A program made the translations under genes and the position numbers. A stretch of DNA of 64,000 nucleotides from contig JABJKH010000065.1 in the NCBI GenBank assembly GCA_018660465.1, positions 3,728 through 67,727 of the forward strand, in the 5' to 3' direction. This document shows positions 1 to 44,468 of the stretch, one piece after another. Under the pieces are notes generated by a model. That model worked only from the letters and a program-made list of their open reading frames with translations. It ran no database searches and was not told the DNA's origin. Origin of the DNA: Rhodospirillaceae bacterium. GTDB lineage: Bacteria; Pseudomonadota; Alphaproteobacteria; Rhodospirillales; JABJKH01. The first letter of the stretch is position 1, and the number at the start of each line of letters is the position of its first letter.

Positions 1-429
1 ATTCATTCCCATACTGGCGAAATTGAGGAGGCGCTCAGTCAACAAATCGGCTTAGTAGATCTCCGTTACGGCGACGCCAATAATCTCGAGTTCGACGATA
101 ACAGCCTCGACTGTATTTTCTCGATGAGCGTGATGGAGCACATTGCAGAAATTGAAGGCGCGGTTGAGAACGTAGCGCGGGTACTCAAGCCCGGTGGACA
201 TTTCATTGTTGGTTTTCCAATCGAAAATTTCGTCTCGAATGCCTTTCTCGATATGATAAAATTAATGATTGGCTTTGATCGCAAGGTGCATCACCCGACC
301 AATCATCACCAAATTCTAGCTGCCTTGGGCCTGCACTTAGAGCCTTTCCACGAACGTCCGTTCCCGTTTTCGGGATCAGTGGCATTCTCTCTCTATTACA
401 CAGGTATTTGGCGAAAACCGGAGAATTAA
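1..429 (+). CDS. Class I SAM-dependent methyltransferase, C-terminal part (5' end outside window)
   Basis: Frame 1 is open from nt 1 (IHSHTGEIEEALSQQIGLVDLRYGDANNLEFDDNSLDCIFSMSVMEHI...VLKPGGHFIV), which is the Methyltransf_11-type post-motif-I region. The ATG at 124 in the ORF track is internal. Stop TAA at 427-429. Confidence 0.8.
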   Translation: MHSHTGEIEEALSQQIGLVDLRYGDANNLEFDDNSLDCIFSMSVMEHIAEIEGAVENVARVLKPGGHFIVGFPIENFVSNAFLDMIKLMIGFDRKVHHPTNHHQILAALGLHLEPFHERPFPFSGSVAFSLYYTGIWRKPEN

Positions 430-433
430 GGCT

Positions 434-1111
434 GTGCTTGATATTGTCGTTCCGACATTAAATGAAGAGGCGAATATTGACCAACTGGTAACGCGCCTAA
501 AGAATGCCTGTCCTGAGGCGCGGCTAATTTTTGTAGACAACTGCTCCACTGATCGCACGCTGGAAATCCTGGAAGGATACGGCGTTGACATCGTCCGCCA
601 TACTGTCAACGAAGGATATGGCAAAAGTCTTTATGACGGCATTATCGCTGGCACAGCGGATTATATTGTTACCATTGACGCCGACCTGGAATACCCCCCC
701 GAATGCATTCCTCAACTGATCGCCCGCCTGGATCAATGCTCGGTCGTTTACGGCTCTCGCTTCGCTGGTGATACTGATCCAGCAATGGGAGCCTTTCGTA
801 TCTACGGCAACCAATTAATTAGCTGGATATTCAACAAACTTTATGGCCAAGCGGTGAGCGACCTTTATACCGGTGTTAAGGCGTTTCGCCGGTCTGCCCT
901 CGACGGGCTTGAATTCCAATGTTCCGGGTTCGTCTTCGTTGTAGAGTTCGCGGCAAAATTGGTGAGATCCGGGTTCCGGCTTGAAGAAGAACCGGTCGAG
1001 TATACAATTCGCCGGGCCGGGCGTCGAAAAATGAAGCACGTCGCGGAAGCTTCAAAGGCACTCTCGTTGTTGTTGTTTTACCGAGTATCGCGGTTAAAAA
1101 TAAAGTCCTAA
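434..1111 (+). CDS. GT2-family glycosyltransferase, Dpm1/GtrB-core-like, no TM segment
   Basis: GTG start. GT-A signatures VVPTLNEEANI, FVDNCSTDRT and the DxD motif IDADLEYPP. Length 225 aa. Confidence 0.85.
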   Translation: MLDIVVPTLNEEANIDQLVTRLKNACPEARLIFVDNCSTDRTLEILEGYGVDIVRHTVNEGYGKSLYDGIIAGTADYIVTIDADLEYPPECIPQLIARLDQCSVVYGSRFAGDTDPAMGAFRIYGNQLISWIFNKLYGQAVSDLYTGVKAFRRSALDGLEFQCSGFVFVVEFAAKLVRSGFRLEEEPVEYTIRRAGRRKMKHVAEASKALSLLLFYRVSRLKIKS

Positions 1112-1115
1112 CAGT

Positions 1116-2581: not shown

Positions 2582-4147
2582 CTATTTTGCGTTGACGCGG
2601 GCTGAGCGGCGCTCCAAAGCATCGTGCATACGGTGCTCCAGAACTGTCGTCATCTCTGTGCCCCCCTTTACATTGCGGTATGTCCGGATGATCCTCTTGG
2701 GAAACCGAGTATAGCCAACCAAATAATAGAGCATCGTACAAATTAGCCGGTAGAACGACAGCTCTTTTGGCCCGACACTTTGGTTGGTTTTTAAATGATT
2801 GAGCGAAACATAGTCGCCATAAATAGAGGTCAAAGACAGGAAGTACGAATCTGAAACAACGATGCGTTTCTCGGCAACGAGTTCACGAAAGAGTTCGGTC
2901 CCAGGATAGGCACAAAATAGCTGCATAGAAACTTCGTCAATGCCATGCCACGCGAGCTTCAGTCCGTAAGCCAACGTCCGATAGATATCTATCCTGGATT
3001 CTTTTGGCAGCCCAATCATCAAATTTGCTCGGGTAACGATGCCGATTTTCACCGCTGACATGATTGAACCTGTGAGGCGATCAAGATCGATCCGTTTCTT
3101 GATTCTCTCGAGCGTTCGCTTGGAACCACTTTCCGGAGCATAGACTAAGTAATTGCAGTTAATATCACGGAGTACACGCAACGTATCGTCATCCAGAGCC
3201 TCACTCCGGGTGCCTGACGGTAGCGACCATTTGACTGAGATTTTTTCTTCCGCTAGGCGCTTTCCAAACTCTATAATCCAGCGCTTCTTGGTGATCGCCG
3301 TCAGATCGTATAACTGCACTGCCGTGATATCATATTTCTCTATATGGGTCTTAAGTTCAGCAATAACGTCTTCGATGTCGCGCAGGATATAGCGTGTGGT
3401 CCACATTCCAGGATTGGAGCAGAAGGTACACTGGTACGGACACCCTCTGGAAATCATCATCGGCATATCCCGCTCGGTCATGACGCCGAAAGACTTACCC
3501 GTGGCCCAAAATTTCTCTAGGTAACCATCAGGCCAGTAAGGCCATGGAATAGCATCAACCTCCCGTATGCGATTTTGGCCAGTGTTTTCGACGTAATTTC
3601 CCTGCCCATCGAGAAAGCTGACGCCATTGACTTCATCGAAGCCCTGGCCATTTTCGATACATTCTAGAAGCTCGTAGAAGGTATGCTCGCCTTCGCCACG
3701 CACACAGACATTGATCGCCGGACAGTCCTTTAGACAATATTCGGACAGCGCGGTCACGTGTTCTCCACCGGCGACAATGGTGACATCAGGAAAGGCCTTG
3801 CGAATTGCCATGAGAAGGAGTTTTGCTGCGGGCCATTCACCAGAAAACATAGCTGAAAATGCAATAACATCTGTATTGGCAGGAATGCGCTCAATAATTT
3901 CTTCGAATTTCAGTCCCTGACAAACATGTGACGAAATCGTCTCCATAGGCCATACCCGGTTGAGCCCCTCAGCGACGCCGTCGACAAATGTAAAATCGTA
4001 GCCCTTGTTTTTGATATACGCTGAAAGATAAGCGAATGCGATGGCCGGTGTGGCCTCATTATTTATGGCTGTTTTGGTGTAAACGATTGGGCCTCGAACG
4101 AACGTCACAAACGTCTTCTTATTTGCGGTGGAGTTTTCACCCGTCAT
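2582..4147 (-). CDS. B12-binding-domain radical SAM protein (class B rSAM), paralog 1
   Basis: Cobalamin-binding-type segment VIAFSAMFSGEWP...IVAGGEHVTAL...VRGEGE, followed by the CxxxCxxC cluster motif SRGCPYQCTFCSNP. Hydrophobic C-terminal helix FYRLICTMLYYLVGY. Confidence 0.9.
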   Translation of the reverse strand: MTGENSTANKKTFVTFVRGPIVYTKTAINNEATPAIAFAYLSAYIKNKGYDFTFVDGVAEGLNRVWPMETISSHVCQGLKFEEIIERIPANTDVIAFSAMFSGEWPAAKLLLMAIRKAFPDVTIVAGGEHVTALSEYCLKDCPAINVCVRGEGEHTFYELLECIENGQGFDEVNGVSFLDGQGNYVENTGQNRIREVDAIPWPYWPDGYLEKFWATGKSFGVMTERDMPMMISRGCPYQCTFCSNPGMWTTRYILRDIEDVIAELKTHIEKYDITAVQLYDLTAITKKRWIIEFGKRLAEEKISVKWSLPSGTRSEALDDDTLRVLRDINCNYLVYAPESGSKRTLERIKKRIDLDRLTGSIMSAVKIGIVTRANLMIGLPKESRIDIYRTLAYGLKLAWHGIDEVSMQLFCAYPGTELFRELVAEKRIVVSDSYFLSLTSIYGDYVSLNHLKTNQSVGPKELSFYRLICTMLYYLVGYTRFPKRIIRTYRNVKGGTEMTTVLEHRMHDALERRSARVNAK

Positions 4148-4341: not shown

Positions 4342-6417
4342 TTGATCAGTCTTTGGTTCGCTGCGGAATACATACTTTTGGGACCGGCTTCCGTGGTGCC
4401 AACATCAAGCAATGGTGAAATGCTTGTACCGGCACTGCTCAGCCAACAGTTCGCCGCAGACCAAGGTGCACTTTGGCAAAACCTTACAAGTACAGGTGCC
4501 GATAAGCTGGCCTTCACATATTACGGCACCATCGATAGCTTCCTGTTTTCCACATTACCGGGATGGCTCGCACACGCCATCAGGTCGTCTTCCGTAATTG
4601 TTGTGGCGGTTTTAAGCGCCTACGCCGTAGGTCGAAATATTCTTCAATTTTCAAGATCAGCGGCATTGTTTGTAGGAGCCGCATATGGCGTTGGTATAAT
4701 CGGTCAATTATTCGCGGGTTCCATCGGATATTTCCCGATCATTCTATTGGTCATTTATGGCGTGCTAGAGAACAGGACGAGTGCCGCCAGATGGGCGGTC
4801 CTTTTTGCTGTCCTCTATGCCTTTGCCGATATGACCTACTTTTCGCAGATGGTGCCTTGGTCGATGGCAACAATCGTTTTCTGGTTTTTATTCGTGACTC
4901 CCCGAAAAACCATCATTGATTGGGGAATTATTATAGCAGTCTGCCTAATTATGGTGGCATTGCGAGCCGATGACTTTGAAGCTCTTTTCGCCAATGCGCC
5001 GTTGTCGTTCATGGGTTTAGCACGGACCACCCCCGATTTAGGACAAGCTCTTTATGGTTCCATCCGATCTCTCTATCTATTCGGCGGACCCGTTCAAACC
5101 GCGTGTACCGCATTATTTTTAGTTAGTCTTGTCGCAAGACGGAACGACAAACTTCTATGGTCAGTAGGCGCCGCACTTCTAATCAGCATTTTTCTTTATC
5201 CGTTGGGTGTCGCGGTTCAGTCGTTCGCCGCCGAGATCTTGCCGTTTCTAAAAGGCTACTCAATGGATTACGCGGGTCGTATCGGCACAACAATTCTGCC
5301 GTTTGCCGCAGGGTTTGGAATTGATGTCTTGGTCAATAATCAGACGATTTCGAGAATTAATGTACCGCGTGGGATCCCCTTGATCGTGCGCCGGCTTGGG
5401 CTAACTCTTTGCATCAGTGCCATTGCATTTGTCTCGCTAAAAACAAAATATGTTAGTTTATACACGTGGGTAACCAACGGCAGCTTCGCCCATAACTTTC
5501 AAAGTCCAGTAATTGAAGAACTTGCCGACTCCATTCGAACCGAAAAAAAGCCTGTTCGTGTCGAAACATTTCAAATTATTCCCAACTACATGCACGCCTA
5601 CGGAATAGAAACCGCTGGCGGGTATCAGATTCTGCATTCACGACGATACTACGAATTTTGGGCTAAAATGGTTGAGCCCTGGGCCGCATCGCTTACGCCA
5701 GAAAGCCGGTTCTACAAACAATATGCTGACCGGCGCGCGCGAATGGAAGGAAACTTGGCCTTTCGCGATGATCGACTCTGGCTGTTTCCCGATACCTACC
5801 GTCCGACATGGCAGTTGGCCAATATCTACCGTCTCAATTTACTTTCTCTGGCCAACGTTGGCTATTTACTTTCGAGGGATCGCTTAACAGACTCGTCCTT
5901 AGTTCCAATCCGGAAAATGCCGCGACCGTGGTCAGCCATGAAAGCTCGTGAAAAGGCGTTAGAAAACATAAAAGCTAACTTTTATGGCCGCAGTTATTTT
6001 AATATTTATAAGAATACAACAGTAATTCCGCGCTTTTTCACGGTATCGGGCATCAATGTTGCAAACGGTGCTGATAACCTACTCAATGACATGTCGAAGG
6101 CTTCCGTCTCCCTGTTGCGCCAACAGGCATTCGTCTCTAAATTGGACCTTCCACGCGGGTTTGATTCGACCCAAACTTTTTCCCGCAGGCAGGTAACGGT
6201 TGAGCAATACGAAAAAGATCAAATCCGCCTGACATTGTCCAGCGGTGGACCAGCGCTTCTTATTGCAACGAACAGCTATTCACCATTCTGGACGGTTGAA
6301 ATCGACGGCGTGGAAAGTGAGATATTTCCGGCATATCATACTTTCTGGGGAGTTCAGATTCCGGCCGGTGCAAAATCTATCGTTTTTCGCTATCGCCCAC
6401 CTTATAAATTGAGTTAA
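4342..6417 (+). CDS. YfhO/DUF6044-like polytopic membrane protein (putative GT-C-type glycosyltransferase)
   Basis: TTG start. Many hydrophobic segments in the first ~380 aa, then a soluble C-terminal domain ending FWTVEIDGVESEIFPAYHTFWGVQIPAGAKSIVFRYRPPY. That ending matches the YfhO-family C-terminal pattern (W..x.DG....I..A...F.xV.xPAG....F.Y.P) as I recall it. Confidence 0.65.
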   Translation: MISLWFAAEYILLGPASVVPTSSNGEMLVPALLSQQFAADQGALWQNLTSTGADKLAFTYYGTIDSFLFSTLPGWLAHAIRSSSVIVVAVLSAYAVGRNILQFSRSAALFVGAAYGVGIIGQLFAGSIGYFPIILLVIYGVLENRTSAARWAVLFAVLYAFADMTYFSQMVPWSMATIVFWFLFVTPRKTIIDWGIIIAVCLIMVALRADDFEALFANAPLSFMGLARTTPDLGQALYGSIRSLYLFGGPVQTACTALFLVSLVARRNDKLLWSVGAALLISIFLYPLGVAVQSFAAEILPFLKGYSMDYAGRIGTTILPFAAGFGIDVLVNNQTISRINVPRGIPLIVRRLGLTLCISAIAFVSLKTKYVSLYTWVTNGSFAHNFQSPVIEELADSIRTEKKPVRVETFQIIPNYMHAYGIETAGGYQILHSRRYYEFWAKMVEPWAASLTPESRFYKQYADRRARMEGNLAFRDDRLWLFPDTYRPTWQLANIYRLNLLSLANVGYLLSRDRLTDSSLVPIRKMPRPWSAMKAREKALENIKANFYGRSYFNIYKNTTVIPRFFTVSGINVANGADNLLNDMSKASVSLLRQQAFVSKLDLPRGFDSTQTFSRRQVTVEQYEKDQIRLTLSSGGPALLIATNSYSPFWTVEIDGVESEIFPAYHTFWGVQIPAGAKSIVFRYRPPYKLS

Positions 6418-6464: not shown

Positions 6465-8015
6465 ATGTCGTTAGTTACACTGATACGTCCCCCGGTCTTG
6501 GTCGCTAAATGGGCGCACACAACTCCCACGTGCCCACCGATCGGCCTCGCCTATTTAGCGGCGGTGTTAATTGGAAATGACATAGCGGTTAACGTCGTCG
6601 ATGCAGTAGGCAATGCACCCGATCAAATGCTGCCCACGGATGACGAAAGATTCCTCTCTCACGGCCAATCAACCGAAGAAATTATTGAGGGAATCGATCC
6701 AGCAACTCAAATCATTGGCATTTCTTGTATGTTTTCACATGAATGGCCGCTGATCCGATCTTTAATTACGCGATTGAAGGAAGTTTTTCCTCAAATTTTA
6801 ATTGTCGGCGGTGGTGAGCATATAACGGCACTGCCAGAATTCTCTCTCGAGGATTGCGGAGCACTTGACGTTGGGATAATTGGCGAAGGTGAGGAAACAC
6901 TTACCGAGTTGGTTTCTGCGATACTCGAAAACCGACCCCTGGATGCAATAACCGGTATTGTTTATCGGAATAATGGGAGCATTCTTAAAACCGCGGCGCG
7001 CACTAGAATTCGTAATATTGATAACATCGCCCTTCCGGCCTGGGAGTTGTTTCCATTAGACACCTATTTGGATAACGGATATGGGTTCGGTGTCAATCGC
7101 GGGCGATCCATGCCAGTCCTGGCCACCCGCGGTTGCCCGTATCAGTGCACGTTCTGTTCCAACCCGACGATGTGGGGAACTCGGTGGGTTTCGCGTAGCC
7201 CTGAACAAGTGTTCGACGAAATGCTGCAATATCATAAGCGTTATCAAATTGATAACTTCGATTTCTACGACCTGACAGCAATCGTTAAGAAGAAGTGGAT
7301 CGTCGAATTTTGCCGGATGGTCATTGATTCAGGGGTTAAATTCACGTGGCAACTCCCGAGTGGCACCCGCTCGGAAGCGATTGACGAGGAGGTTTCCGAG
7401 CTTTTGTACCAATCCGGTTGCCGCAACATGAGCTACGCTCCCGAAAGTGGATCACCGAGCGTCTTGCTGCGTATTAAGAAAAAGATCGACCTCAAATCCA
7501 TGGAGGCTTCGATGAGAGACTCCATTAGAAATGGCATTAACTGCAAGGCCAACATCATCATTGGATTTCCCAACGAGACTCATAAGGAGATATTTCAAAC
7601 CCTATGGTTCTGCGTCCGAATGGCGGCGATTGGGATTCACGATGTGTCGCTTTCTCCATTTTCTCCATACCCCGGCTCAGAATTGTTCTCGAATATGCAA
7701 AATGACGGCCAAATTCCTGAGTATAGCGACGAATTCTTCTATGGATTGGCTGCATACACAGATTTGACAACAACCACGTCCTGTTCAAAATACGTCGGCG
7801 ACCGAGCGCTTGGATTTTATCGAATTTTCGGCATGCTCCTATTTTACGGCGTTCTTTATCTGTTACGGCCCTGGCGGCTGGTACGCACGCTTCGTAATGT
7901 CTTCGGTGAATTTCAGGAATCCCGCTTGGAAATGTCGCTTCGAGACCTTTACATTCGCTTGTGTAAATCCAAGGATTCTACGGTAGCTACCCCGGCTCGG
8001 AGTACACACAAATGA
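6465..8015 (+). CDS. B12-binding-domain radical SAM protein (class B rSAM), paralog 2
   Basis: IIGISCMFSHEWP...IVGGGEHITAL...IIGEGE, then TRGCPYQCTFCSNP (Cys codons at 7134, 7146, 7155). It aligns along its length with the 2582-4147 product. C-terminal helix FYRIFGMLLFYGVLY. Confidence 0.9.
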   Translation: MSLVTLIRPPVLVAKWAHTTPTCPPIGLAYLAAVLIGNDIAVNVVDAVGNAPDQMLPTDDERFLSHGQSTEEIIEGIDPATQIIGISCMFSHEWPLIRSLITRLKEVFPQILIVGGGEHITALPEFSLEDCGALDVGIIGEGEETLTELVSAILENRPLDAITGIVYRNNGSILKTAARTRIRNIDNIALPAWELFPLDTYLDNGYGFGVNRGRSMPVLATRGCPYQCTFCSNPTMWGTRWVSRSPEQVFDEMLQYHKRYQIDNFDFYDLTAIVKKKWIVEFCRMVIDSGVKFTWQLPSGTRSEAIDEEVSELLYQSGCRNMSYAPESGSPSVLLRIKKKIDLKSMEASMRDSIRNGINCKANIIIGFPNETHKEIFQTLWFCVRMAAIGIHDVSLSPFSPYPGSELFSNMQNDGQIPEYSDEFFYGLAAYTDLTTTTSCSKYVGDRALGFYRIFGMLLFYGVLYLLRPWRLVRTLRNVFGEFQESRLEMSLRDLYIRLCKSKDSTVATPARSTHK

Positions 8016-8923
8016 CAGCTTTGGTATCGGGCTCCTCCGGGTACCTCGGGTACAACCTAACGGCAAAATTAGTCGGCAGAGGTGAACCCGTCATTGCTGT
8101 CGTGCGTCCAACATCGAAAACTGCTCACTTGGCAGACCTTGGCGAAAACGTCCGTATTTATATCGACGATGGCTCGGCAGACGGTTTGGCCAGCGCATTC
8201 GAGGGCAATGACATTAGCGTTGTTTACCATCTAGCCGCTTGTCGACCCGAATATCTAGGACAAGAAGACACAATTGAAACGGTCGATGCAAATATTGGGT
8301 TTGGCACGCGACTCCTCCACGCCGCCGTTCGCGTGGGATGCCCGTCGTTCATTAATACGGGATCGTGGTGGCAATTTGAAGAGACCGGCGCGATTGCACC
8401 AAATTCGCTCTACGCTGCAACAAAGCAGGCATTCCAAGACATCCTATCGTTCTATGTTCAAACATCGGGCATTCGCGCAGTTTCCTTGATACCCTATGAC
8501 ATTTACGGACCGAACGACTGGCGAGGACGATTGACATCGGTCCTTTTGCGCGCCGCTAAGGGCGAACTGATTAAGATGACCCCAGGTGAACAAAAGATGG
8601 ATATTATTCACGTCTCGGATGTGACAGAAGCCTACATCTCAGCCTGCAAGCTTATGGATCAAAGACATATAGACGGGAATGGAGAACATTATTTTCTTGG
8701 ATCGGGGCACAGGCGAAGCTTAAAAGAAATCGCAAATATATTTGAGCAAGCATGGGAAAGCCCCCTAGCGATTAATTGGGGAGAACTACCGTACCGTGAA
8801 AACCAAGTATTTATGCCATGTCCGGCCAGCCCCACCTTGCCAACATGGAGACCTCAAATGTCACTGGACGACGGTTTCAAGGACCTGATCCAAAATGACC
8901 GTCTAGGTAAAACGGCGCAATGA
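8012..8923 (+). CDS. NAD-dependent epimerase/dehydratase-family (extended SDR) protein
   Basis: N-terminal LVSGSSGYLGYNL (GxxGxxG) and catalytic YAATKQAF (YxxxK). Its ATGA overlaps the upstream rSAM stop at 8012-8015. Confidence 0.85.
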   Translation: MTALVSGSSGYLGYNLTAKLVGRGEPVIAVVRPTSKTAHLADLGENVRIYIDDGSADGLASAFEGNDISVVYHLAACRPEYLGQEDTIETVDANIGFGTRLLHAAVRVGCPSFINTGSWWQFEETGAIAPNSLYAATKQAFQDILSFYVQTSGIRAVSLIPYDIYGPNDWRGRLTSVLLRAAKGELIKMTPGEQKMDIIHVSDVTEAYISACKLMDQRHIDGNGEHYFLGSGHRRSLKEIANIFEQAWESPLAINWGELPYRENQVFMPCPASPTLPTWRPQMSLDDGFKDLIQNDRLGKTAQ

Positions 8924-9894: not shown

Positions 9895-10142
9895 TTTCCC
9901 GACCATCTCAGTCCAAATCAGAATTGGCGGCAACCAACAGTGATCAAGCACGGCTGAATAAGGCTTTAATCTGGAGCCTGTTTTTGGTTTTTGTAGGTAG
10001 CTTTGCCGTTCTCGTATTGGCGACTACTGCACCACTGTGGCTCGAACCCGCAGCAGAAGTCGACTTTTTGCGCAGTATAGGTAATTTAATACTGGATTTT
10101 TTAGAACGGTTTTACCACGAACCGGAAATGGATATCATTTAA
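9891..10142 (+). CDS. Small single-pass membrane protein, unknown function
   Basis: 4-nt overlap with the GtrB-like gene. One clear TM segment (ALIWSLFLVFVGSFAVLVLATTAPLWL). No recognisable family. Confidence 0.4.
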   Translation: MISRPSQSKSELAATNSDQARLNKALIWSLFLVFVGSFAVLVLATTAPLWLEPAAEVDFLRSIGNLILDFLERFYHEPEMDII

Positions 10143-31019: not shown

Positions 31020-31052
31020 TTATCGAGCCATTATTAATAACTGCCCCTATTC

Positions 31053-32318: not shown

Positions 32319-32321
32319 ATC

Positions 32322-33740: not shown

Positions 33741-33815
33741 ATTGGAAACCTAGCACACAACGGGCATAGTCAGCCGTATCTCATCATTCGCCGAGATATG
33801 TCGGGAAATCTCATG

Positions 33816-35927: not shown

Positions 35928-37394
35928 ATGACGATATTATCTAAAATTATCCCCATCATCCTCTCTGGCGGATCAGGTACGCGGCTTTGGCCGCAATCGC
36001 GGAACTCGTTTCCAAAGCAGCTGCTACCGTTTGTGTCGGATCATAGCTTGCTGCAGGAAACTGCGTTGCGATTAACCGAAGACCAGATTTTTGCGCGCCC
36101 TGTTGTGGTTTGTAATCTCGAGCATCGGTTCCTTATTTTAGATCAATTGCGTGAGGTTTCTGTAGAACCTGCCGATGTCATCGTTGAACCCACCGGGCGC
36201 AATACGGCCCCTGCCGCTGCCGTTGCCGCACTTTGTGCTGTTGAAACGGATCCTGAAGCGATCCTTTTCTTATTGCCCTCAGATCACGCAATCCAAAACC
36301 AAGCCGCGTTTTTGAATGTCGTTAACTTGGCCGCAGCATCTGCCAAAGCCGGGCATTTGGTCACCTTTGGAATTGAGCCGCACGCTCCTGAAACGGGCTA
36401 CGGGTATATCAACAAGGGTGCGCCCTTGAACGGACTAACAGGATGCTGTGCGGTTGAGAGCTTTGTCGAAAAACCAGACGTGAAAACGGCCGAGGGTTAT
36501 CTTGAAACAGGATCTTATCTTTGGAACAGTGGCATGTTTGTCTTCAGGGCGGGCGTCTATCTGGAAGAACTGGAACGTCTGAATCCCGCAATCCTTACGT
36601 CCTGTCGAAAGGCACTGGCGGCCGGCGGCACGGATGAAAATTTTCAATTTTTAGATAAGAACGCATTTTCTGAAAGCCCGTCGCTCTCCATCGATTATGC
36701 CGTCATGGAGCACACCGATAAAGCAGCCGTGGTCCCTGCCGACATGGGATGGAGTGATGTTGGCACATGGAAATCCCTTTGGCAGGCGACTGAAAAAGAT
36801 ACGGATGGCAACGTGCTAAAAGGCGATGTTCTATCGATCAATTCTAAAAACTCTTATATTTCCAGCCAAGACCAATTGGTTGCCGTGGTCGACCTGGAAG
36901 ACATTGCCGTGATTGAGACCGAAGACGCTGTCTTGGTCATGCCATTGGACAAATCGCAAGACGTACGTGACGTCGTGAAGCGTCTGAAGTCCGATGGACG
37001 CGAAGACTACCTGACCCACCCCAGGGTCTACCGCCCTTGGGGCAATTACAAGACCATGGACAAAGACGAGGGGTTTCAGGTTAAGCGCCTGACGGTAAAT
37101 CCTGGCCAACGCCTCAGTCTTCAAAAACACCAGCACCGCACCGAACATTGGACTGTGGTCGATGGCATCGCACGAATTACGATAGGAACCAGCATCTCAG
37201 ACGTTATGGAAAACAATACGGTTCTAATTCCAGCTGGCACGGTTCACCGTCTGGAGAACATAACATCCGACCCCTTGGTTGTGATCGAGGTCCAATACGG
37301 CAGCTATCTGGGCGAAGACGATATAGAACGCTTGGAAGATGATTATGGCCAAGCCATGAAGATTCCCCCCGAGTCCGATCCCGGAATCAGCTAG
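35928..37394 (+). CDS. manC: Mannose-1-phosphate guanylyltransferase / mannose-6-phosphate isomerase (type II PMI)
   Basis: IIPIILSGGSGTRLWPQSRNSFPKQLL and the C-terminal cupin RPWGNYKTMDKDEGFQVKRLTVNPGQRLSLQKHQHRTEHW. Confidence 0.9.
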   Translation: MTILSKIIPIILSGGSGTRLWPQSRNSFPKQLLPFVSDHSLLQETALRLTEDQIFARPVVVCNLEHRFLILDQLREVSVEPADVIVEPTGRNTAPAAAVAALCAVETDPEAILFLLPSDHAIQNQAAFLNVVNLAAASAKAGHLVTFGIEPHAPETGYGYINKGAPLNGLTGCCAVESFVEKPDVKTAEGYLETGSYLWNSGMFVFRAGVYLEELERLNPAILTSCRKALAAGGTDENFQFLDKNAFSESPSLSIDYAVMEHTDKAAVVPADMGWSDVGTWKSLWQATEKDTDGNVLKGDVLSINSKNSYISSQDQLVAVVDLEDIAVIETEDAVLVMPLDKSQDVRDVVKRLKSDGREDYLTHPRVYRPWGNYKTMDKDEGFQVKRLTVNPGQRLSLQKHQHRTEHWTVVDGIARITIGTSISDVMENNTVLIPAGTVHRLENITSDPLVVIEVQYGSYLGEDDIERLEDDYGQAMKIPPESDPGIS

Positions 37395-37426: not shown

Positions 37427-39298
37427 ATGTGCGGTATAGCCGGCAGCACGACTGCCACCAGCGATGTTCTCCAGACGATGGGCGCGCGGTTGCGCCACCG
37501 GGGACCCGACAGCGATGGCACCTGGCAAGCACCTGGCGGGATTTTGGGACTGGCCCATACCCGGCTCAAGGTTATTGATCTTAGCGACGGCGGCCATCAA
37601 CCGATGGTCTCTGACGACAGACGGTTCGCGCTGGTCTTCAACGGCGAAATCTACAATTACAAAGCCTTACGACGTGACCTTGAATCAAAGGGTGAGTCGT
37701 TTAGATCGGACAGTGATACCGAAGTGCTGTTCGTGCTGTTGCGTCGGGAGGGGAAAAAGGCTTTGGCCCGGCTCGTCGGTATGTTTTCTTTTGCATTCTG
37801 GAACGGAGAATCGGGTGAGCTGTTACTGGCCCGCGACCGACTTGGCATCAAGCCGTTGGTCTATGCGCCTCTCGCCAATCGACAAATCGCCTTTGCCTCC
37901 GAAATCGAAGCACTTCGCGCGCATCCTGGGATTGATCTCAATATTGACCGCCAAGCGGTATCAGAATTTCTCGCCTGTCTTTATGTTCCCCAACCGCTCT
38001 GTATTCATAAGGGCATCCGTAAACTGCCGCCCGGTCATACACTGACGTGGCGCGCTGGAACCACAACCATCGAGCCCTATTGGCAGCCTGCATTTAAGGG
38101 AACCCGGCAGCCCACCCTGGATGAAGCTGTCGAGGAAATCTTGCCCTTGGTACGCCAATCCGTGATCGACCGGCTGGTAGCCGACGTTCCGGTCGGATGC
38201 TTTTTATCCGGCGGAATTGATAGCTCTGTCATTGCAGCCTTGATGGCAGAAGAATCGAAAGCTCAAGGTGGGCCTGCGATCAAGACCTTCACCATGACCT
38301 TCGATGAAGCCACCTATGATGAGCGTGCCGCCGCCAAGCAGGTCGCCGACCACATCGGCAGCGACCATACGGAACTGCCCGCGAGTTCAGATCTCGCCTC
38401 GCGCCTAAACAAAACTCTGAAGGCATTTGGTGAACCCTTTGGAAATCCGACATCATTGCTGATAGACGATCTTTCCAGGAAGGCCCGCGAACATGTGACG
38501 GTCGCATTGGTCGGTGATGGCGGGGACGAAGTCTTCGCCGGGTATCCCCGCTACAAGGGCGGCCTGTGGGCACAAAAATATCGGCACCTACCGGGATGGC
38601 TTCGACGCGGCGTTGTTGCCCCAATAGCAGGCCTCATTCCGGAAAGCACCGAGGGCCGTCATGGACTTAGGCGGGCACGGGAGTTTTTAACTTCGGCCAG
38701 CCTTCCTGATGCGAATATGTACGCCGCCTGGGTCGAATATTTTTCGCCGGAAGAACGCGCTCAGATGTTACCAGAGGATACGGCACCGAAAAGTCCCATC
38801 GCCGAGCTTTACCAAAAATCGCCCTCAGACCACCCGCTTGATGCCATGCAGCAAACCGATCTGCAATCGTTCCTGCCAAGTAATTTATTGGCCTACGGTG
38901 ATGCCATGAGCATGCGGCATAGTTTGGAACTACGGCTGCCGCTGATTGACCATCGCTTGGTCGATGCCGTCGGAACCTTAGCTCCGGGGCTTAGGGTTCA
39001 AGATGGCATGAAGACACTGCTACGCGCCGTGGCCCAGAAGTTATTGCCCACACATATCGTCGATGCACCAAAGCGGGGATTTAATCCGCCCATGGGGGTT
39101 TGGCTGAAAAACGATTTAGCCAGCATGGTGAAAGACCGGCTGACCCCTGAACGAATGGCGGATGTCGGCCTCGCATGGGAGCCAATCGACCAGCTGCTGA
39201 GCGAACATCACGGCAGCCGTCGCGATCATTCGCTCAAAGTCTGGGCGTTGTTGGTTCTTGATACGTGGCGGGATTCTAGGCGAGGGTCGATAAACTAA
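37427..39298 (+). CDS. Asparagine synthase (glutamine-hydrolysing)-family amidotransferase, copy 2
   Basis: MCGIAG nucleophile, NGEIYNYKALR and PP-loop FLSGGIDSS. Only distantly similar to copy 1. Confidence 0.9.
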   Translation: MCGIAGSTTATSDVLQTMGARLRHRGPDSDGTWQAPGGILGLAHTRLKVIDLSDGGHQPMVSDDRRFALVFNGEIYNYKALRRDLESKGESFRSDSDTEVLFVLLRREGKKALARLVGMFSFAFWNGESGELLLARDRLGIKPLVYAPLANRQIAFASEIEALRAHPGIDLNIDRQAVSEFLACLYVPQPLCIHKGIRKLPPGHTLTWRAGTTTIEPYWQPAFKGTRQPTLDEAVEEILPLVRQSVIDRLVADVPVGCFLSGGIDSSVIAALMAEESKAQGGPAIKTFTMTFDEATYDERAAAKQVADHIGSDHTELPASSDLASRLNKTLKAFGEPFGNPTSLLIDDLSRKAREHVTVALVGDGGDEVFAGYPRYKGGLWAQKYRHLPGWLRRGVVAPIAGLIPESTEGRHGLRRAREFLTSASLPDANMYAAWVEYFSPEERAQMLPEDTAPKSPIAELYQKSPSDHPLDAMQQTDLQSFLPSNLLAYGDAMSMRHSLELRLPLIDHRLVDAVGTLAPGLRVQDGMKTLLRAVAQKLLPTHIVDAPKRGFNPPMGVWLKNDLASMVKDRLTPERMADVGLAWEPIDQLLSEHHGSRRDHSLKVWALLVLDTWRDSRRGSIN

Positions 39299-39344: not shown

Positions 39345-40352
39345 ATGAATTTACCCCTTTTCGCCGGAATATTCGTCGCCGTTTTTTTGCTGTCGCTTGG
39401 CGGCACACGCTTGGCGCTGGGCTACCTAAAGCAACGCGCCATCCTCGATCACCCGAACGAACGCAGCAGCCACACAATCCCGACACCTCGGGGGGGTGGC
39501 TTGGCTGTTAGTGCCGTTCTTATTGCCGCCTGGGCCGTTCTGGCCCTTACAGGTTTCGGCAATCTTCCTCAAATTTTAATTCTTTGTGTGGTGGCCTCTG
39601 GTCTGGCCGTCCTGTCGTGGCGTGATGACTTGCGTCCGTTACCGGCCAGCCTGCGCTTAGTTGGACAGGTTGTTGCCGTCAGCGTTGCTTTGATTTCCGC
39701 CCCCAACGAGGCTGCGTATTTCGGCGGTTTTCTACCTCCGATTCTGGACACAATTGCTGCTGGAGTCTTGTGGATTTGGTTTCTTAATCTGTTCAACTTC
39801 ATGGATGGCATCGATGGGATTACGGCAACGGAAACGATCGCCGTTTGCGTTGGTGTCATGTTGATTACAGCGGGCGCAACGAGTGGGTTGTTTCCCTATG
39901 CCCTGGTCACAACTGCGGCGGCATTAGGGTTTTTGTGGTGGAACTGGCCACCTGCGCGGATTTTTCTGGGTGACGTGGGGAGCATCCCCCTAGGATTTCT
40001 TTTGGGCTGGATCCTTTTGTCCTTGGCACAAGAGGGCTACGGGGCAGCGGCCTTAATCCTGCCGGCGTACTATTTTGCCGACGCAACCTTGACCTTGGGT
40101 CGGCGGGCGATTCGCGGGGAACGGGTGTGGCAGGCCCATAAACAACATGCCTATCAACGTGCCGTGCAGCGGGGATGGAGCCACCAGTCTGTTGTCCTGG
40201 CGATAATGCTGACAAACCTTGCCTTGGTTGGACTGGCGGTATTCGCCACCACGAATCCCTCTCTTACAGCGCAAGCATTGATTGGTACAGGTGTCGTGGT
40301 AGCCGGAATAATTGTTGTCCTTCAAAAGGTTGGCGGAAATAAAAACTTATGA
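39345..40352 (+). CDS. MraY/WecA/WbpL-family polyprenyl-phosphate HexNAc-1-phosphate transferase (initiating enzyme)
   Basis: About 10-11 TM helices, the NLFNFMDGIDGI motif and LGDVGSIPLGF. Confidence 0.85.
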   Translation: MNLPLFAGIFVAVFLLSLGGTRLALGYLKQRAILDHPNERSSHTIPTPRGGGLAVSAVLIAAWAVLALTGFGNLPQILILCVVASGLAVLSWRDDLRPLPASLRLVGQVVAVSVALISAPNEAAYFGGFLPPILDTIAAGVLWIWFLNLFNFMDGIDGITATETIAVCVGVMLITAGATSGLFPYALVTTAAALGFLWWNWPPARIFLGDVGSIPLGFLLGWILLSLAQEGYGAAALILPAYYFADATLTLGRRAIRGERVWQAHKQHAYQRAVQRGWSHQSVVLAIMLTNLALVGLAVFATTNPSLTAQALIGTGVVVAGIIVVLQKVGGNKNL

Positions 40353-41581
40353 AAATTCTCTTCATCAGTGATAATTTTCCGCCGGAAACCAACGCGTCCG
40401 CCACCCGCGTGTTCGAACGCGCGTGTTATTGGGTCAAGTGGGGGCACGAAGTCACGATCGTGAGCGGCGTGCCAAATTTCCCCCAAGGAAAAGTTTTTGA
40501 GGGCTACAAAAATACTTTTCAGACGGAAACGATGGAAGGCATGCGGGTGGTCCGCGTTAAAACCTACATCGCACCAAACAGAGGGAAATTCCGCCGCGCC
40601 CTCGATTTTCTTAGCTTTCGGATCAACGCCGCGCGAGCTGCGAAGAAAGAACCCCGGCCTGATTTGATTTGCGCGACCTCCCCTCAACCGGGCGCCGCCT
40701 TGGCTGGATTGGACGCTGCTAAACATCACGGCGTGCCCTTTATTTTTGAGCTGGGCGATCTCTGGCCGGCGTCAATTTCGGCTGTTGGCGCGATGGAAAA
40801 AAGCTTTCTCTACAACCAGATGGAACGCCAGGAACTTTCCATGTATCGGCGATCCAATGCGGTTGTCGCCCTGACCGGTGCCTTTAAACAAGATCTGATC
40901 CGCCGGGGTATTGACGGCAATAAAATCGACGTGGTGATTAACGGGGTTGATACCTGGCGCTATGGCCCCCGTGGCCGTGACCCTGAGCTAGCGCGGGAAT
41001 TAGGCCTTACCGATGAATTTGTCGTTGGATATGTCGGCACCCACGGCATGGCCCATGGGCTCGGCAACGTTTTAGATGCGGCTGAAATTGTTGCGGCGAA
41101 AAAACAGAAAATTCGATTTTTGTTGGCGGGTGCTGGAGCAGAGCGCGAAGCCCTCATCGCAGCCGCCGAACAGCGTGGCCTGAACAACGTCTTATTTTTA
41201 TCCATGCAGCCCAAGGAACGCATGCCGCAAGTTTGGAGCCTCTGCGACGTCGCCTTGGTTCATCTCCGCGATGACCCAACCTTCGCCGAAGTCATTCCTT
41301 CTAAAATATTTGAAGCCATGGCCATGGGGCTGCCCATCATCGTGAGTGCGCCACGCGGCGAAGGCAGCCGCATTGTCGAACGAGACCGTGCCGGGTGTTG
41401 GGTTCCAGCGGGTGACGCCTTGGGTTTGGCCGGGGCCGCGATGTTGTTTGAAAAAAACCGCGATGGCTGCCGCGACTTTGGTGCACAAAGCCTTGCCGCA
41501 GCCCCTGGGCATAGCCGAGAAATTCAAGCGCGTGAGATGCTAAGTGTGTTTGAGCGGGTGATTAAAGGTAGGGCTTCTTGA
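40349..41581 (+). CDS. Group-1 (GT4) glycosyltransferase, WbuB-like
   Basis: MKILFISDNFPPETNASATRVFE N-terminus and an EX7E-type C-terminal motif (EVIPSKIFEAMAMGLPII). Confidence 0.85.
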   Translation: MKILFISDNFPPETNASATRVFERACYWVKWGHEVTIVSGVPNFPQGKVFEGYKNTFQTETMEGMRVVRVKTYIAPNRGKFRRALDFLSFRINAARAAKKEPRPDLICATSPQPGAALAGLDAAKHHGVPFIFELGDLWPASISAVGAMEKSFLYNQMERQELSMYRRSNAVVALTGAFKQDLIRRGIDGNKIDVVINGVDTWRYGPRGRDPELARELGLTDEFVVGYVGTHGMAHGLGNVLDAAEIVAAKKQKIRFLLAGAGAEREALIAAAEQRGLNNVLFLSMQPKERMPQVWSLCDVALVHLRDDPTFAEVIPSKIFEAMAMGLPIIVSAPRGEGSRIVERDRAGCWVPAGDALGLAGAAMLFEKNRDGCRDFGAQSLAAAPGHSREIQAREMLSVFERVIKGRAS

Positions 41582-42522
41582 TGCGGGTGCTGGTCACAGG
41601 GGCAACGGGTTTTGTTGGTCGGGCGCTGGTGCCTATGCTGACCCAGGCTGGGCACGATGTCACCATCACGGTCCGTTATGGTCCGTCTGCGGATCATTTG
41701 AAAAATGTTCGTTTGAAAAATATCGGAGAGATTGGTCCAGAGACAAACTGGCAAGAGGCGCTTAGCAATTTCGACGCCGTTCTACATCTGGCAGGTCGCG
41801 CCCATGTAATGGCTGAATCCGACGCTGATCCCCTTGCCGCGTATCGACGCATTAATCGGGATGGCACGAAGCGATTGGCCGAAGCGGCAGCTGATGCAGG
41901 TGTTAAGCGACTGGTCTTTCTTAGTTCTATCAAGGTCAATGGCGAACGAACGACCAATCACCCCTACAGCGAAGCAAGCACGCCGCAACCTGAAGATGCC
42001 TATGGCCAGTCCAAATGGGAGGGCGAGCAGGCGCTTCATGAGATCAATGGATTGGAAACGGTCGTCGTGCGCACGCCTCTGGTCTATGGCCCACATGTAA
42101 AGGGAAATTTCCGCTCGCTACTGAATATCTGCAGAAAGACGGTGCCGCTTCCTTTGGGGGGTCTTCAGAATAGGCGCAGCTTGATTTATGTCGGTAATTT
42201 GGCTGATGCACTGATCAGGTGCCTCACGCATCCCAAAGCCGCTGGCAATCTCTATCTTGTCCGGGATGGCGATGATGTCTCTACAACAACCTTGATAAAA
42301 AGCACAGCTCAGGCCCTTGGAAAGCAGACCTATTTATTTCCTGTCCCCAGATTACTGCTCCGGGCTGGCGGTGCATTAACCGGCAAAAGTGGTATGGTTT
42401 CCAGACTCATTGAGTCCCTGGAAGTTGATGATTCTGCAATCCGGCGCGATCTAGACTGGACGCCACCATTTACCATGGTACAAGGACTAACCGAAACGGC
42501 AACTTGGTTTAGGTCTGTATAA
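41578..42522 (+). CDS. NAD-dependent epimerase/dehydratase-family protein (WbpK/WreQ-like 4-reductase/epimerase candidate)
   Basis: MRVLVTGATGFVGRALV, YGQSKWEGE (YxxxK). 4-nt overlaps on both sides. Confidence 0.85.
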   Translation: MMRVLVTGATGFVGRALVPMLTQAGHDVTITVRYGPSADHLKNVRLKNIGEIGPETNWQEALSNFDAVLHLAGRAHVMAESDADPLAAYRRINRDGTKRLAEAAADAGVKRLVFLSSIKVNGERTTNHPYSEASTPQPEDAYGQSKWEGEQALHEINGLETVVVRTPLVYGPHVKGNFRSLLNICRKTVPLPLGGLQNRRSLIYVGNLADALIRCLTHPKAAGNLYLVRDGDDVSTTTLIKSTAQALGKQTYLFPVPRLLLRAGGALTGKSGMVSRLIESLEVDDSAIRRDLDWTPPFTMVQGLTETATWFRSV

Positions 42523-42539
42523 GTAAGGACGTCGCTGAT

Positions 42540-44468
42540 TTGAAAGTATTTAAGGCCATTCCTGCCCGCGGACTCATCGTCTTCGCACATGATATTTTCA
42601 TGGCAACGGTATCGTTTCTTGCCGCTCTTTACCTGCGCATCGGTGATGGTATTTTCTATTACCCCACGGACATCTTGTTGCAGGGTGCTGGCGTTTTCGT
42701 GGTTATCGCCACCGGAGTGTTCTGGTACATGGATTTGTATCGCGGCGTGTGGCGGTATGCATCGCTTAATGATTTATTGGCAATCACCCGATCTGCCACA
42801 CTCGTTATCCTTATTTTCTTGCTGGTGATGTTTACCTGGACCCGGCTGGAGGATCTTCCGAGATCTTTGCCGATTATCAATTGGGGCGTGTTGATGGCGC
42901 TGTTGGGTGGGCCTAGGTTTTTCTATCGATTGCTAAAGGATCGTCAGTTTGAATTTGTTCTGGAAGATGAAGACCACCGCCGAATCCCTGTATTGTTAGT
43001 TGGCGCAGGCGATGAGGCCGAACAGTTCATCCGCGCCATGGAGCGCCAAAGTGACGGTAATTACAGAGTCGTCGGAATTGTCGCCGAACGCGCGGCCCGA
43101 GTAGGTCGTAATATCCACGATGTCCAGGTTCTTGGTACGACCGACGATTTGGACGACATTGTCGAAACGTTGCAACGATCAGGTCGGCGCCCGGAACGTC
43201 TTATTTTAACCTACGATACGATGAACGGGACAAAAGTTCGGAACTTGCTCGACAGAGCGGGTGCCCTGGGAATGACCCTCGCGCGCTTGCCCAAATTGAC
43301 CGATTTCAGGACAGGAGTCACAGATGCAGCATCACTCGAGGTTAAGCCTGTCGCGGTGGAAGACCTTCTCGGTCGGCCGCAAGCAGCGTTGGACCGTGAC
43401 GCCATGGACCGCCTGATCAAAGGCCGCCGGGTTTTGCTAACCGGCGCTGGCGGCAGTATCGGTAGTGAACTTGCCCGACAGATTTCTGCCTTTGCCCCTG
43501 CCGAGCTGGTTTTACTCGATAATTCTGAGTTTAATTTATATTCAATCGATATGGACCTCAGCCGTCATGCACCAGAAACCCCGAGGCGCGCCGTACTGGC
43601 CGATGTCCGGGACCGCGCCCGGTTGGATGAAGTTTTTACTGATGTTTCGCCGGAACTGGTATTTCATGCGGCCGCCTTAAAGCATGTTCCGATGGTCGAG
43701 GCCAACGTGGTTGAAGGTGCCCGCACCAATATTCGCGGCACAGCAAACGTTGCGGAATGCTGCGTAAGTTCTGGCGTTGATGCCATGGTTCTGATTTCGA
43801 CGGACAAGGCGGTCAATCCCACCAGCATCATGGGTGCCACCAAACGCGTCGCCGAAAGTTATTGCCAAGCACTGGACCTGAAGCGCAGTGGCGGTGAGGG
43901 AACACGCTTCGTTACCGTTCGTTTTGGTAATGTACTTGGGTCCACGGGATCGGTTGTGCCGTTGTTTGAAACGCAGCTTCGAGCCGGTGGGCCCCTGACA
44001 GTAACTCACCCCGAAATGACGCGTTATTTTATGACGGTCCGCGAGGCAGTGGAATTGGTTTTGCAGGCCTCAGCATTTGGGACGACCACTTTCAAGGAAG
44101 ACGGCAAAATCTTTGTTCTGGATATGGGTGAGCCGGTTCTGATTCTGGACTTGGCCAAACAGATGATCCGTTTGGCTGGGTTGAAGCCGAATGACGACAT
44201 AAAAATTGAATTTACCGGACTAAGACCGGGCGAAAAATTGTTCGAAGAAATGTTTCATGGCAAAGAAGCGCCGACACCTACGGCGTGCCCGGGGGTCCTT
44301 CTGGCAGCTCCCCGTGCAACGGGGTACGACCAGTTGACCAATACGCTGCGGGAAATTGAAGACGTCTGCGCCACTGGAGACGTCGAGGAAACCAGGGCGG
44401 CGATTATCCGCGCCGTTCCTGAATTTATAGGATCAGATGAAAACGCAGTGATCGCGGCAACTCGGTAA
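42540..44468 (+). CDS. CapD/WbpM/PglF-family membrane-anchored UDP-HexNAc 4,6-dehydratase
   Basis: Four N-terminal TM helices, then [13 protein letters not shown] and [21 protein letters not shown]. 642 aa. TTG start. Confidence 0.9.

Follow-up and report, generated by a model that had tools for sequence, protein, structure and literature searches.

The window analysed here is a 64,000-nucleotide (nt) stretch of contig JABJKH010000065.1. Its first 44,468 nt, together with at least 7.1 kb of sequence further upstream, are one contiguous surface-glycan locus, at least 52 kb long, of an uncultured marine member of the Rhodospirillaceae. The sequences suggest that the locus encodes a single undecaprenyl-linked surface polysaccharide, most likely a glycan of the lipopolysaccharide (LPS) O-antigen type, made by a route of the PglK/Wzk type. 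We give this reading a probability of about 0.55. In Helicobacter pylori the route consists of WecA, Wzk (a PglK homologue) and WaaL, and involves none of Wzx, Wzy, Wzz and Wzm/Wzt (PMC2841628). Systems of this kind are known; the locus is an uncharacterised example, and near-syntenic loci exist in sequenced cultured bacteria.

Gene content was established from a listing of open reading frames (ORFs) and from Pfam scans of every gene-sized ORF. Glycan genes form an unbroken run from nt 1 to 44468, as the original prediction had claimed. Its estimate of ~38 genes agrees with our count of 37-38 (33 on the forward strand). The genes are tightly packed: 11 junctions overlap, nine of these by 1-4 nt, and most of the remaining gaps are shorter than 100 nt. 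The right boundary is sharp because purH starts 26 nt past the end of the CapD gene and is followed by other core genes (NAD-glutamate dehydrogenase, LolA, FtsK, AmtB, GlnK). No core gene interrupts the stretch from CapD back to a transporter gene upstream of the window, which bears out the idea of a single, very large locus truncated on the left. Such sizes are not unprecedented among polysaccharide loci, e.g. rfb of Leptospira. The GC content of the locus ranges from 0.41 to 0.56. A low-GC block at 29528-35833 (GC 0.41-0.46 and 0.39-0.46 at third codon positions (GC3), with flanks at 0.48-0.56) contains a GT2 glycosyltransferase, a methyltransferase, a Wzy_C-family protein, a kinase-methyltransferase fusion and an LtaS-like gene. 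This suggests a separate acquisition, and the contrast with the 37-44 kb region (0.53-0.56) supports a mosaic origin. In the window, the Rfam scan gave no match, no tRNA genes were found, and the counts of promoters and terminators equalled those of shuffled controls.

The locus had been described as lacking export genes, which is an artefact of the window edge. An exact-protein look-up found the leftmost complete protein on three NCBI metagenome-assembled genomes (MAGs) and three ENA metagenome assemblies, which are 99.96-100% identical to the window and reach 7.1 kb further left. There, 5.3-7.1 kb upstream of the window, lies the gene of a fused ATP-binding cassette (ABC) half-transporter that we regard as a candidate PglK/Wzk-type flippase of lipid-linked glycans. 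All matching assemblies end at or just before this gene, and the full-length protein of the source organism is recorded only as fragments. Scans for more sequence on the left produced only relatives, at no more than 66% identity, in genomes and nothing close in metagenomes. The original prediction had proposed to extend the contig leftwards in search of wzx/wzy/wzz or wzm/wzt. The extension gained 7.1 kb and the PglK-like ABC gene, but none of Wzx, Wzz or Wzm/Wzt.

The ABC protein scores best with the NCBIfam model of PglK (348.7 bits), ahead of MsbA (303) and HepA (302), all under the equivalog cut-offs. Judged by sequence, it is best described as a distant relative of PglK and not an orthologue. 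Its best half-transporter match in the PDB is Campylobacter jejuni PglK (E 1e-84, full length). For the membrane domain alone (340 amino acids, aa), the entire PDB gave a single match, PglK/WlaB (E 4e-15, residues 29-336 against 26-332). Arginines R86, R260, R302 and R309 of PglK are functionally relevant and probably bind the pyrophosphate of the lipid-linked oligosaccharide (PMC5395944). Three of these four are kept: R265, R306 and R313 of the ABC protein align with R260, R302 and R309. Several homologues of the protein are annotated as PglK by JGI. The gene recurs within glycan loci of relatives, with genes for an AP_endonuc_2 protein and a short-chain dehydrogenase/reductase (SDR) downstream in three of them and AP_endonuc_2 alone in a fourth. 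In one distant relative (contig ctg122722, L016), the PglK-like ABC gene, 64% identical, stands alone among insertion sequences and transposases, which suggests that the gene can be mobile.

Among the gene-sized ORFs of 1-44468 there was no match to Wzx/MOP, Wzz, Wzm/Wzt, DegT, hexapeptide (left-handed beta-helix, LbH) acetyltransferases or UDP-sugar 6-dehydrogenases, so the absences listed in the original prediction stand. Polysacc_synt/MOP (Wzx) is also absent from the 7.1 kb upstream, and the sole ABC gene encodes a fused exporter, with its transmembrane (TM) and nucleotide-binding domains in one chain, instead of a separate Wzm (ABC-2 permease) and Wzt (ATPase). Wza/Wzc/KpsD-type outer-membrane export genes were not found in the window, an absence that agrees better with an LPS glycan exported through Lpt than with a capsule. 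Relatives have their DegT and hexapeptide acetyltransferase genes either in a variable cassette or ahead of the ABC gene; sequence upstream of the window may well contain the absent genes for an aminotransferase and an acetyltransferase, as the original prediction suspected. Could this be a conventional Wzx/Wzy-dependent O-antigen or capsule locus, with Wzx and Wzz further left and the ABC protein otherwise employed? The Wzy_C-family gene does lie inside a low-GC block typical of O-unit processing genes, the left end beyond the ABC gene is unassembled, and relatives have at least 10 kb more glycan genes ahead of it, which implies that the real locus exceeds 52 kb. We nevertheless consider this unlikely, because the 10 kb before the ABC gene in three relatives and the 52 kb available here contain neither MOP/Wzx nor Wzz, and because the ABC membrane domain is specifically PglK-like and retains three of the arginines that probably bind pyrophosphate. 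What precedes the ABC gene in two Thalassospiraceae-like relatives (L007, 154-9991; L031, 1-9985) is a nonulosonic-acid set: NeuB, DegT, PglD-like, HisF/HisH-like and a CMP-transferase. In L031 it starts beside a gene of the NusG family, possibly an operon antiterminator.

The claim that the locus lacks chain-length genes overlooked the 472-aa product of 32322-33740 (reverse strand), in which a kinase-like region precedes a WbdD-like methyltransferase domain. In O9a, polymerisation stops once WbdD has phosphorylated and then methylated the polymer's terminal mannose; the enzyme consists of a methyltransferase, a kinase and a C-terminal coiled-coil ruler (PMC3482155). By analogy, the fusion may cap the glycan chain. 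The best PDB sequence match of its methyltransferase domain is WbdD, with weak similarity (E 8e-7), and WbdD is among the top Foldseek matches of the full model (pLDDT 90). The first 270 residues matched nothing in the PDB by sequence, even in a profile search, and their likeness to kinases comes from the fold search alone. The top 50 Foldseek matches of this region (model pLDDT 87) are all protein kinases, Tyk2, CK2, Src and ROCK1 among them, at E ~1e-5 and with modest TM-scores (0.32-0.45). Residues K121, D122, P125 and N127 (K-D-x-x-P-x-N) and the later D139 are invariant in the family alignment and resemble the catalytic loop and metal-binding Asp of kinases. The family extends, at 44-50% identity over the full length, through Proteobacteria and Acidobacteria, and databases name it merely 'SAM-dependent methyltransferase'. 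The protein is WbdD-like in its predicted activities, and not a member of the WbdD family.

From the gene identities we infer every step of the following pathway. CapD/WbpM and the adjacent SDR would make a 6-deoxy-N-acetylhexosamine (6-deoxy-HexNAc) nucleotide, from which the WecA/WbpL-type transferase would load the sugar onto undecaprenyl phosphate. The chain would then be extended in the cytoplasm by three soluble GT2 domains, one GT1 and possibly a 544-aa conserved protein. Donors would include GDP-mannose (from ManC), the product of a fusion between an NTP-transferase and a GT2, and a CMP-activated acid similar to 3-deoxy-D-manno-octulosonic acid (Kdo). The last would come from a conserved module with a KdsB-like enzyme, a haloacid dehalogenase-type (HAD) phosphatase, a 2-hydroxyacid dehydrogenase and two WlbA-like oxidoreductases. 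In the fusion (1116-2573), donor synthesis and transfer would sit in one polypeptide. Predicted tailoring comprises O-methylation, possibly C-methylation by radical S-adenosylmethionine (SAM) enzymes, O-carbamoylation by a TobZ-type enzyme with SxtJ/SxtK-like partners, and amidation by two AsnB-type enzymes. After capping, which may fall to the WbdD-like fusion, the upstream ABC half-transporter would flip the lipid-linked glycan, and the Wzy_C-family protein would ligate it to its acceptor, or polymerise it. In the periplasm, the YfhO-like and PMT_2 enzymes of the GT-C type would add side branches from polyprenyl-phosphate sugars supplied by two TM-anchored GT2s, while LtaS-like and SGNH-like proteins would add or remove phospho and acyl substituents.

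The Wzy_C protein (31053-32318) has no NCBIfam and no PDB sequence match, and its domain is common to WaaL, Wzy and PglL. PglL enzymes bear this domain, and the locus might serve general protein O-glycosylation, with a PglL-type O-oligosaccharyltransferase acting on periplasmic or surface proteins. PglK serves as flippase in protein glycosylation (PMC5395944, PMC2841628), and H. pylori is reported to glycosylate proteins with its LPS machinery as well (PMC9553153). Against this, the size of the locus, its three GT-C enzymes and the candidate chain terminator suggest a polymer over a short oligosaccharide, there is no PglB/STT3 gene, and the NCBIfam and PDB searches did not distinguish PglL from WaaL. 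We find a protein-glycosylation locus very unlikely.

The centre of the window locus, 10179-21902, is a 12-kb module shared with the cultured Magnetospira sp. QH-2 at identities of 56-78% (the SGNH-like protein excepted) and found also in other Rhodospirillales. In the complete genome of Magnetospira (FO538765.1) the order is Methyltransf_24 (reverse strand), 544-aa protein, two GFO/IDH/MocA oxidoreductases, SGNH-like protein, KdsB-like enzyme and 2-hydroxyacid dehydrogenase. An AsnB (62% identity), a TM-anchored GT2 (56%), a methyltransferase (52%) and a YfhO-like protein (29%) are encoded close by. MBOAT genes replace the carbamoyltransferase insert in this genome: MBOAT follows the AlgX-like gene, and the trio of SxtJ, DUF5989 and carbamoyltransferase is missing. 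The SGNH-like protein of the window scores 25.2 bits with AlgX, just below the cut-off of 26.5, and its Magnetospira counterpart (29% identical) has a recorded ALGX match in Pfam. In two marine relatives, where the 544-aa protein shows 87% and 66% identity to that of the window, the module includes the insert (SxtJ, DUF5989, carbamoyltransferase, methyltransferase, SGNH-like). The cassette upstream of it differs and encodes DegT, a GT2, an LbH acetyltransferase, a single B12 radical SAM enzyme and a membrane protein of 713 aa; one of these relatives also has MBOAT there. The regions flanking the module behave like serotype cassettes. In relatives (e.g. L029, 19073-21481) a gene of 311-324 aa without Pfam domain follows the KdsB-like gene, ahead of the HAD gene if there is one; in the window (19507-20955) the KdsB-like and HAD genes abut and this gene is missing. 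The locus had been thought to match no described one. The papers searched on Magnetospira and Rhodospirillales indeed yielded no characterised counterpart, but the module is syntenic in Magnetospira and the marine relatives.

These rearrangements raise the question of whether two or more functionally separate glycan systems lie side by side, e.g. an O-antigen block at 35.9-44.5 kb, a Kdo-like acidic module at 10.2-21.9 kb and Gtr/Arn-like modules. The mosaic composition, with its contrast between the 29.5-35.8 kb and 37-44 kb regions, the different neighbours of the central module in Magnetospira and marine relatives, and the four genes on the opposite strand would agree with this. Nonetheless, the run is uninterrupted by core genes, most junctions are overlaps or gaps below 100 nt between genes of the same strand, and there is a single initiating transferase, a single Wzy_C gene and a single exporter candidate. 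We hold separate systems to be possible, if doubtful.

Several features of the module may point to an activated acidic sugar. The KdsB-like cytidylyltransferase passes the NCBIfam cut-off of the KdsB subfamily (215.6 against 193 bits), which suggests that its product is a Kdo-like acid activated with CMP, as with KpsU. The best PDB matches of the first GFO/IDH/MocA enzyme (3q2i, 3q2k) are what we take to be WlbA UDP-GlcNAcA 3-dehydrogenases. The 544-aa protein has 802 homologues, including proteins of cultured Magnetospira and Magnetospirillum species. It gave no match in Pfam, PDB or profile-PDB searches, including the Capsule_synth family of KpsC/KpsS. Its family has an invariant K-x-H-P (K417-x-H419-P420), and beta-Kdo glycosyltransferases, which sequence alone did not reveal, have an HP motif in common with CMP-sialic-acid transferases (PMC10148158). 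This makes the protein a candidate CMP-sugar transferase, which we offer as a lead.

Every tailoring class listed in the original prediction was confirmed: six class I SAM methyltransferases (1-429, 17411-18421 and 30273-31019, and on the reverse strand 10179-11147, 21906-22820 and 32322-33740), two radical SAM enzymes, a carbamoyltransferase, two AsnB-type enzymes, an SGNH/AlgX-like protein with weak matches and an LtaS-type protein. The carbamoyltransferase (15618-17411) matches NovN, GdmN and TobZ in the PDB and has full-length Carbam_trans_N and Carbam_trans_C domains. The genes of the SxtJ-like and DUF5989/SxtK-like proteins lie directly upstream, a trio kept in two marine relatives. SxtJ and SxtK have been proposed to work with SxtI, the carbamoyltransferase of saxitoxin synthesis (PMC2679770), and the LPS core of Pseudomonas contains O-carbamoylated sugars, with WapO as putative transferase (PMC8005017). 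The radical SAM enzymes match HpnJ and PhpK-like families weakly, far under the family cut-offs. With the TobZ-type enzyme and its partners, these B12-binding enzymes and the oxidoreductases similar to inositol dehydrogenases, one might think of a secondary-metabolite cluster of aminoglycoside, saxitoxin or hopanoid-like type. This is extremely improbable given the WecA/WbpL-type transferase, Wzy_C, GT-C enzymes, CapD and ManC, and given that there is no cyclase, aminotransferase, polyketide synthase/non-ribosomal peptide synthetase or squalene-hopene cyclase. We rejected such clusters on the low radical SAM scores and the presence of undecaprenyl-type enzymes.

The two GT2s with C-terminal TM helices (8920-9894 and 26488-27579) are encoded near the polytopic YfhO-like (4342-6417) and PMT_2 (27636-29465) proteins. 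Such pairs fit the logic of Gtr, Arn and CsbB-YfhO systems and, by that analogy, support periplasmic side-branching. No small flippase (GtrA, ArnE/F, GtcA) was matched in the window, where the only candidate is an 83-aa ORF with a single TM helix and no family. A methylated, carbamoylated and amidated glycan with periplasmic side branches, as originally predicted, is thus consistent with the gene content, including the two polyprenyl-phosphate-type GT2s and the two GT-C enzymes.

A number of observations weigh against a single O-antigen-type glycan made by a PglK/Wzk-type route. The 348.7 bits of the ABC protein are to be compared with a PglK equivalog cut-off of 1000, and PglK R86 aligns with an Asn (N91), with K90 one position before. 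A Wzx, Wzz or Wzm/Wzt gene could lie left of the ABC gene, where all assemblies end. The two AsnB-type enzymes lack a UDP-sugar 6-dehydrogenase, and the WlbA-like dehydrogenase lacks a DegT. The sequence of the Wzy_C protein is compatible with a ligase, a polymerase or an O-oligosaccharyltransferase, and assigns it to none of these subtypes. The order of domains in the kinase-methyltransferase fusion is the reverse of WbdD, and the protein ends at residue 472 without a coiled coil; its family is widespread (Acidobacteria included), and it may merely add a methyl-phosphate substituent. Finally, because GC content varies (0.41-0.56) and modules are combined differently in relatives, more than one glycan product is possible.

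One may go further and picture a locus type of marine Rhodospirillales in which a PglK-type flippase is joined to a capper of reversed kinase-methyltransferase order, so that O-antigen would be assembled, and its chains controlled, in a new way. In it, the 12-kb module would make and transfer an acidic sugar, CMP-activated, carbamoylated and methylated, that has yet to be described; the 544-aa protein would be the first member of a new glycosyltransferase family, and the SxtJ/SxtK-like proteins would be obligate partners of glycan O-carbamoylation. Taken jointly, these proposals are speculative, and we doubt that all of them hold.

Table 1. Genes of the locus, from the upstream extension (numbered outwards from the window edge) to CapD; identities are to Magnetospira sp. 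QH-2.
Position	Strand	Product	Evidence	Identity
Upstream 6, L005:33-1829		598-aa fused ABC transporter (half-transporter)
Upstream 5		AP_endonuc_2 TIM-barrel protein
Upstream 4		SDR
Upstream 3		712-aa protein	9 predicted TM helices; weak YfhO/DUF6044 similarity
Upstream 2		Radical SAM/SPASM enzyme
Upstream 1		Rest of first methyltransferase
1-429	+	Class I SAM methyltransferase, C-terminal part of 234-aa protein	Methyltransf_11 E 6e-14; full gene on L001-L006
434-1111	+	Soluble GT2 glycosyltransferase	Glycos_transf_2 E 2e-28; no predicted TM helix
1116-2573	+	Sugar-1-phosphate nucleotidylyltransferase-GT2 fusion, 485 aa	NTP_transferase residues 8-227, GT2 255-367
2582-4147	-	Class B (B12-binding) radical SAM enzyme	B12-binding and Radical_SAM; under every NCBIfam equivalog cut-off
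4342-6417	+	YfhO/DUF6044-like polytopic membrane protein, putative periplasmic GT-C	YfhO E 3e-9; at least 8 predicted TM helices; weak 712-aa paralogue upstream
6465-8015	+	Second class B radical SAM enzyme	B12-binding and radical SAM; under NCBIfam cut-offs
8012-8923	+	SDR-type sugar epimerase/reductase	Epimerase E 1e-30
8920-9894	+	GT2 with C-terminal TM helices, candidate GtrB/CsbB/ArnC-type polyprenyl-phosphate sugar synthase	GT2 E 2e-26; TM ~229-289
9891-10142	+	83-aa ORF, one TM helix	Called in every matching assembly reaching it (L001-L003); no Pfam match
10179-11147	-	Methyltransf_24 methyltransferase, first gene of module	Pfam	59%
11236-12870	+	544-aa conserved soluble protein, candidate CMP-sugar (Kdo-like) glycosyltransferase	Weak TIGR04326 match; invariant motif	56%
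12867-13976	+	GFO/IDH/MocA oxidoreductase, candidate sugar-nucleotide 3-dehydrogenase	PDB 3q2i, 3q2k E 3e-61	78%
13973-15019	+	Second GFO/IDH/MocA oxidoreductase	Pfam	72%
15050-15439	+	SxtJ-like small membrane protein, 129 aa	PF19588 E 1e-10; three TM helices
15453-15605	+	DUF5989/SxtK-like membrane protein, 50 aa	PF19451 E 2e-17
15618-17411	+	O-carbamoyltransferase, TobZ/NovN/GdmN type	Carbam_trans_N E 3e-104, Carbam_trans_C E 8e-73; PDB E 5e-94
17411-18421	+	Class I SAM methyltransferase	Pfam; start set from 336-337-aa orthologues
18422-19501	+	SGNH/AlgX-like protein, candidate periplasmic O-acyl transferase or esterase	Weak AlgX and GDSL; N-terminal TM helix/signal at 14-32	29%
19507-20271	+	KdsB/KpsU-like CMP-ulosonic acid synthetase	CTP_transf_3 E 2e-40; NCBIfam PRK05450.1-5	77%
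20272-20955	+	HAD phosphatase, phosphoglycolate-phosphatase-like	TIGR01449 202.8 bits (cut-off 180)
20952-21902	+	D-2-hydroxyacid dehydrogenase, last gene of module	Pfam	66%
21906-22820	-	Class I SAM methyltransferase	Pfam
22823-24613	+	Heparinase II/III-like protein, candidate polymer-level lyase or epimerase	Hepar_II_III_C E 3e-18; start per existing gene calls
24618-26510	+	AsnB-type glutamine amidotransferase	Pfam/NCBIfam
26488-27579	+	GT2 with two C-terminal TM helices, candidate ArnC/GtrB-type polyprenyl-phosphate sugar synthase	Pfam and TM prediction
27636-29465	+	PMT_2 (ArnT-like) GT-C glycosyltransferase	PMT_2 E 1e-10; ~13 TM helices; start per existing gene calls
29528-30244	+	Soluble GT2 glycosyltransferase, start of low-GC block	Pfam
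30273-31019	+	Class I SAM methyltransferase	Pfam
31053-32318	+	Wzy_C-family membrane protein: O-antigen ligase, polymerase or O-oligosaccharyltransferase	Wzy_C E 7e-18; ~10 TM helices
32322-33740	-	Protein-kinase-like (~1-270) and class I methyltransferase (~280-472) fusion, candidate chain-capping enzyme	WbdD best PDB match; kinase fold by Foldseek
34250-35833	+	LtaS/EptA-type membrane-anchored phospho-substituent transferase	Sulfatase E 8e-23; four predicted N-terminal TM helices; GC 0.407, locus minimum
35928-37394	+	ManC (GDP-mannose pyrophosphorylase/phosphomannose isomerase)	Pfam
37427-39298	+	Second AsnB-type amidotransferase	Pfam/NCBIfam
39345-40352	+	WecA/WbpL-family polyprenyl-phosphate HexNAc-1-phosphate transferase, initiating enzyme	Glycos_transf_4 E 1e-30; ~10 TM helices
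40349-41581	+	GT1/GT4-type (GT-B) glycosyltransferase	Pfam
41578-42522	+	SDR sugar reductase/epimerase, candidate WbpK/WbpV-type 4-reductase	Pfam
42540-44468	+	CapD/WbpM-type membrane UDP-HexNAc 4,6-dehydratase, right end of locus	Polysacc_synt_2 E 3e-112

To the right of the locus, two adjacent proteins rich in TPR_10/TPR_12 repeats (406 and 375 aa; 46072-48447, reverse strand; GC3 0.43) are encoded between purH and a GmhA/DiaA-like SIS protein. Nitrogen-metabolism genes follow at 49268-60416 (reverse strand) and encode an NAD-specific glutamate dehydrogenase of 1619 aa, an aminotransferase, AmtB and GlnK/P-II, with LolA and FtsK in between. The longest ORFs of LolA and FtsK overlap by 80 nt (54359-55099 and 55020-57368), and those of a Trm112-like protein and a Lon-substrate-binding-domain protein by 136 nt (62363-62728 and 62593-63246, reverse strand). 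Both are probably due to over-extended start codons and not real overlaps.

The value of the locus lies less in its size than in the corrections made here and in three protein families. A puzzling glycan locus without exporter is explained by the edge of the window, and the PglK/Wzk-type route, whose characterised examples so far come from Campylobacter and Helicobacter, may also operate for large, clustered surface-glycan loci of abundant marine Alphaproteobacteria. Such surface glycans shape interactions with phages and grazers in the ocean. Three widely conserved uncharacterised families become tractable, namely the kinase-methyltransferase fusion, the 544-aa partner of the KdsB-like enzyme and the SxtJ/DUF5989 partners of the carbamoyltransferase, and the cultured Magnetospira sp. 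QH-2, which bears the module without the carbamoyltransferase insert, offers an experimental route.

Among known systems, the Wzk pathway of H. pylori resembles the locus in its WecA-family initiator, its fused ABC half-transporter (nearest here, among solved structures, to PglK), its Wzy_C enzyme and the lack of Wzx, Wzz and Wzm/Wzt in view. Its genes are scattered, whereas those of the window are clustered in one giant locus, whose ABC protein is only distantly related to PglK, whose Wzy_C protein is a putative WaaL, and whose heavy tailoring and GT-C branch have no counterpart in H. pylori. With the WbdD systems of Escherichia coli O9a/O8 the locus shares the combination of a kinase fold and a methyltransferase in one protein, a ManC gene and the implied assembly in the cytoplasm. 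It differs from them in the reversed domain order, the absence of a coiled-coil ruler, of a Wzm/Wzt pair and of the carbohydrate-binding module of Wzt, and in having just one GT4-type transferase. The ends of O-antigen clusters of the Pseudomonas aeruginosa type carry wbpL and wbpM, with a WbpB/WlbA-like dehydrogenase and an AsnB-like amidotransferase. The right end of our locus is similar (polyprenyl-phosphate HexNAc-1-phosphate transferase, GT1, SDR, CapD/WbpM), and a WlbA-like oxidoreductase and AsnB-type amidotransferases are present, but the window lacks the WbpA-type 6-dehydrogenase, WbpE/DegT, WbpD, Wzx and Wzz. Gtr, Arn and CsbB-YfhO systems likewise pair a TM-anchored GT2 with a polytopic GT-C, though the window has no recognised small flippase. 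The loci of Magnetospira sp. QH-2 and of marine Rhodospirillales MAGs, likewise uncharacterised, share the order of the module with the window; those of the relatives carry DegT, an LbH acetyltransferase and the 311-aa gene, all three of which the window lacks.

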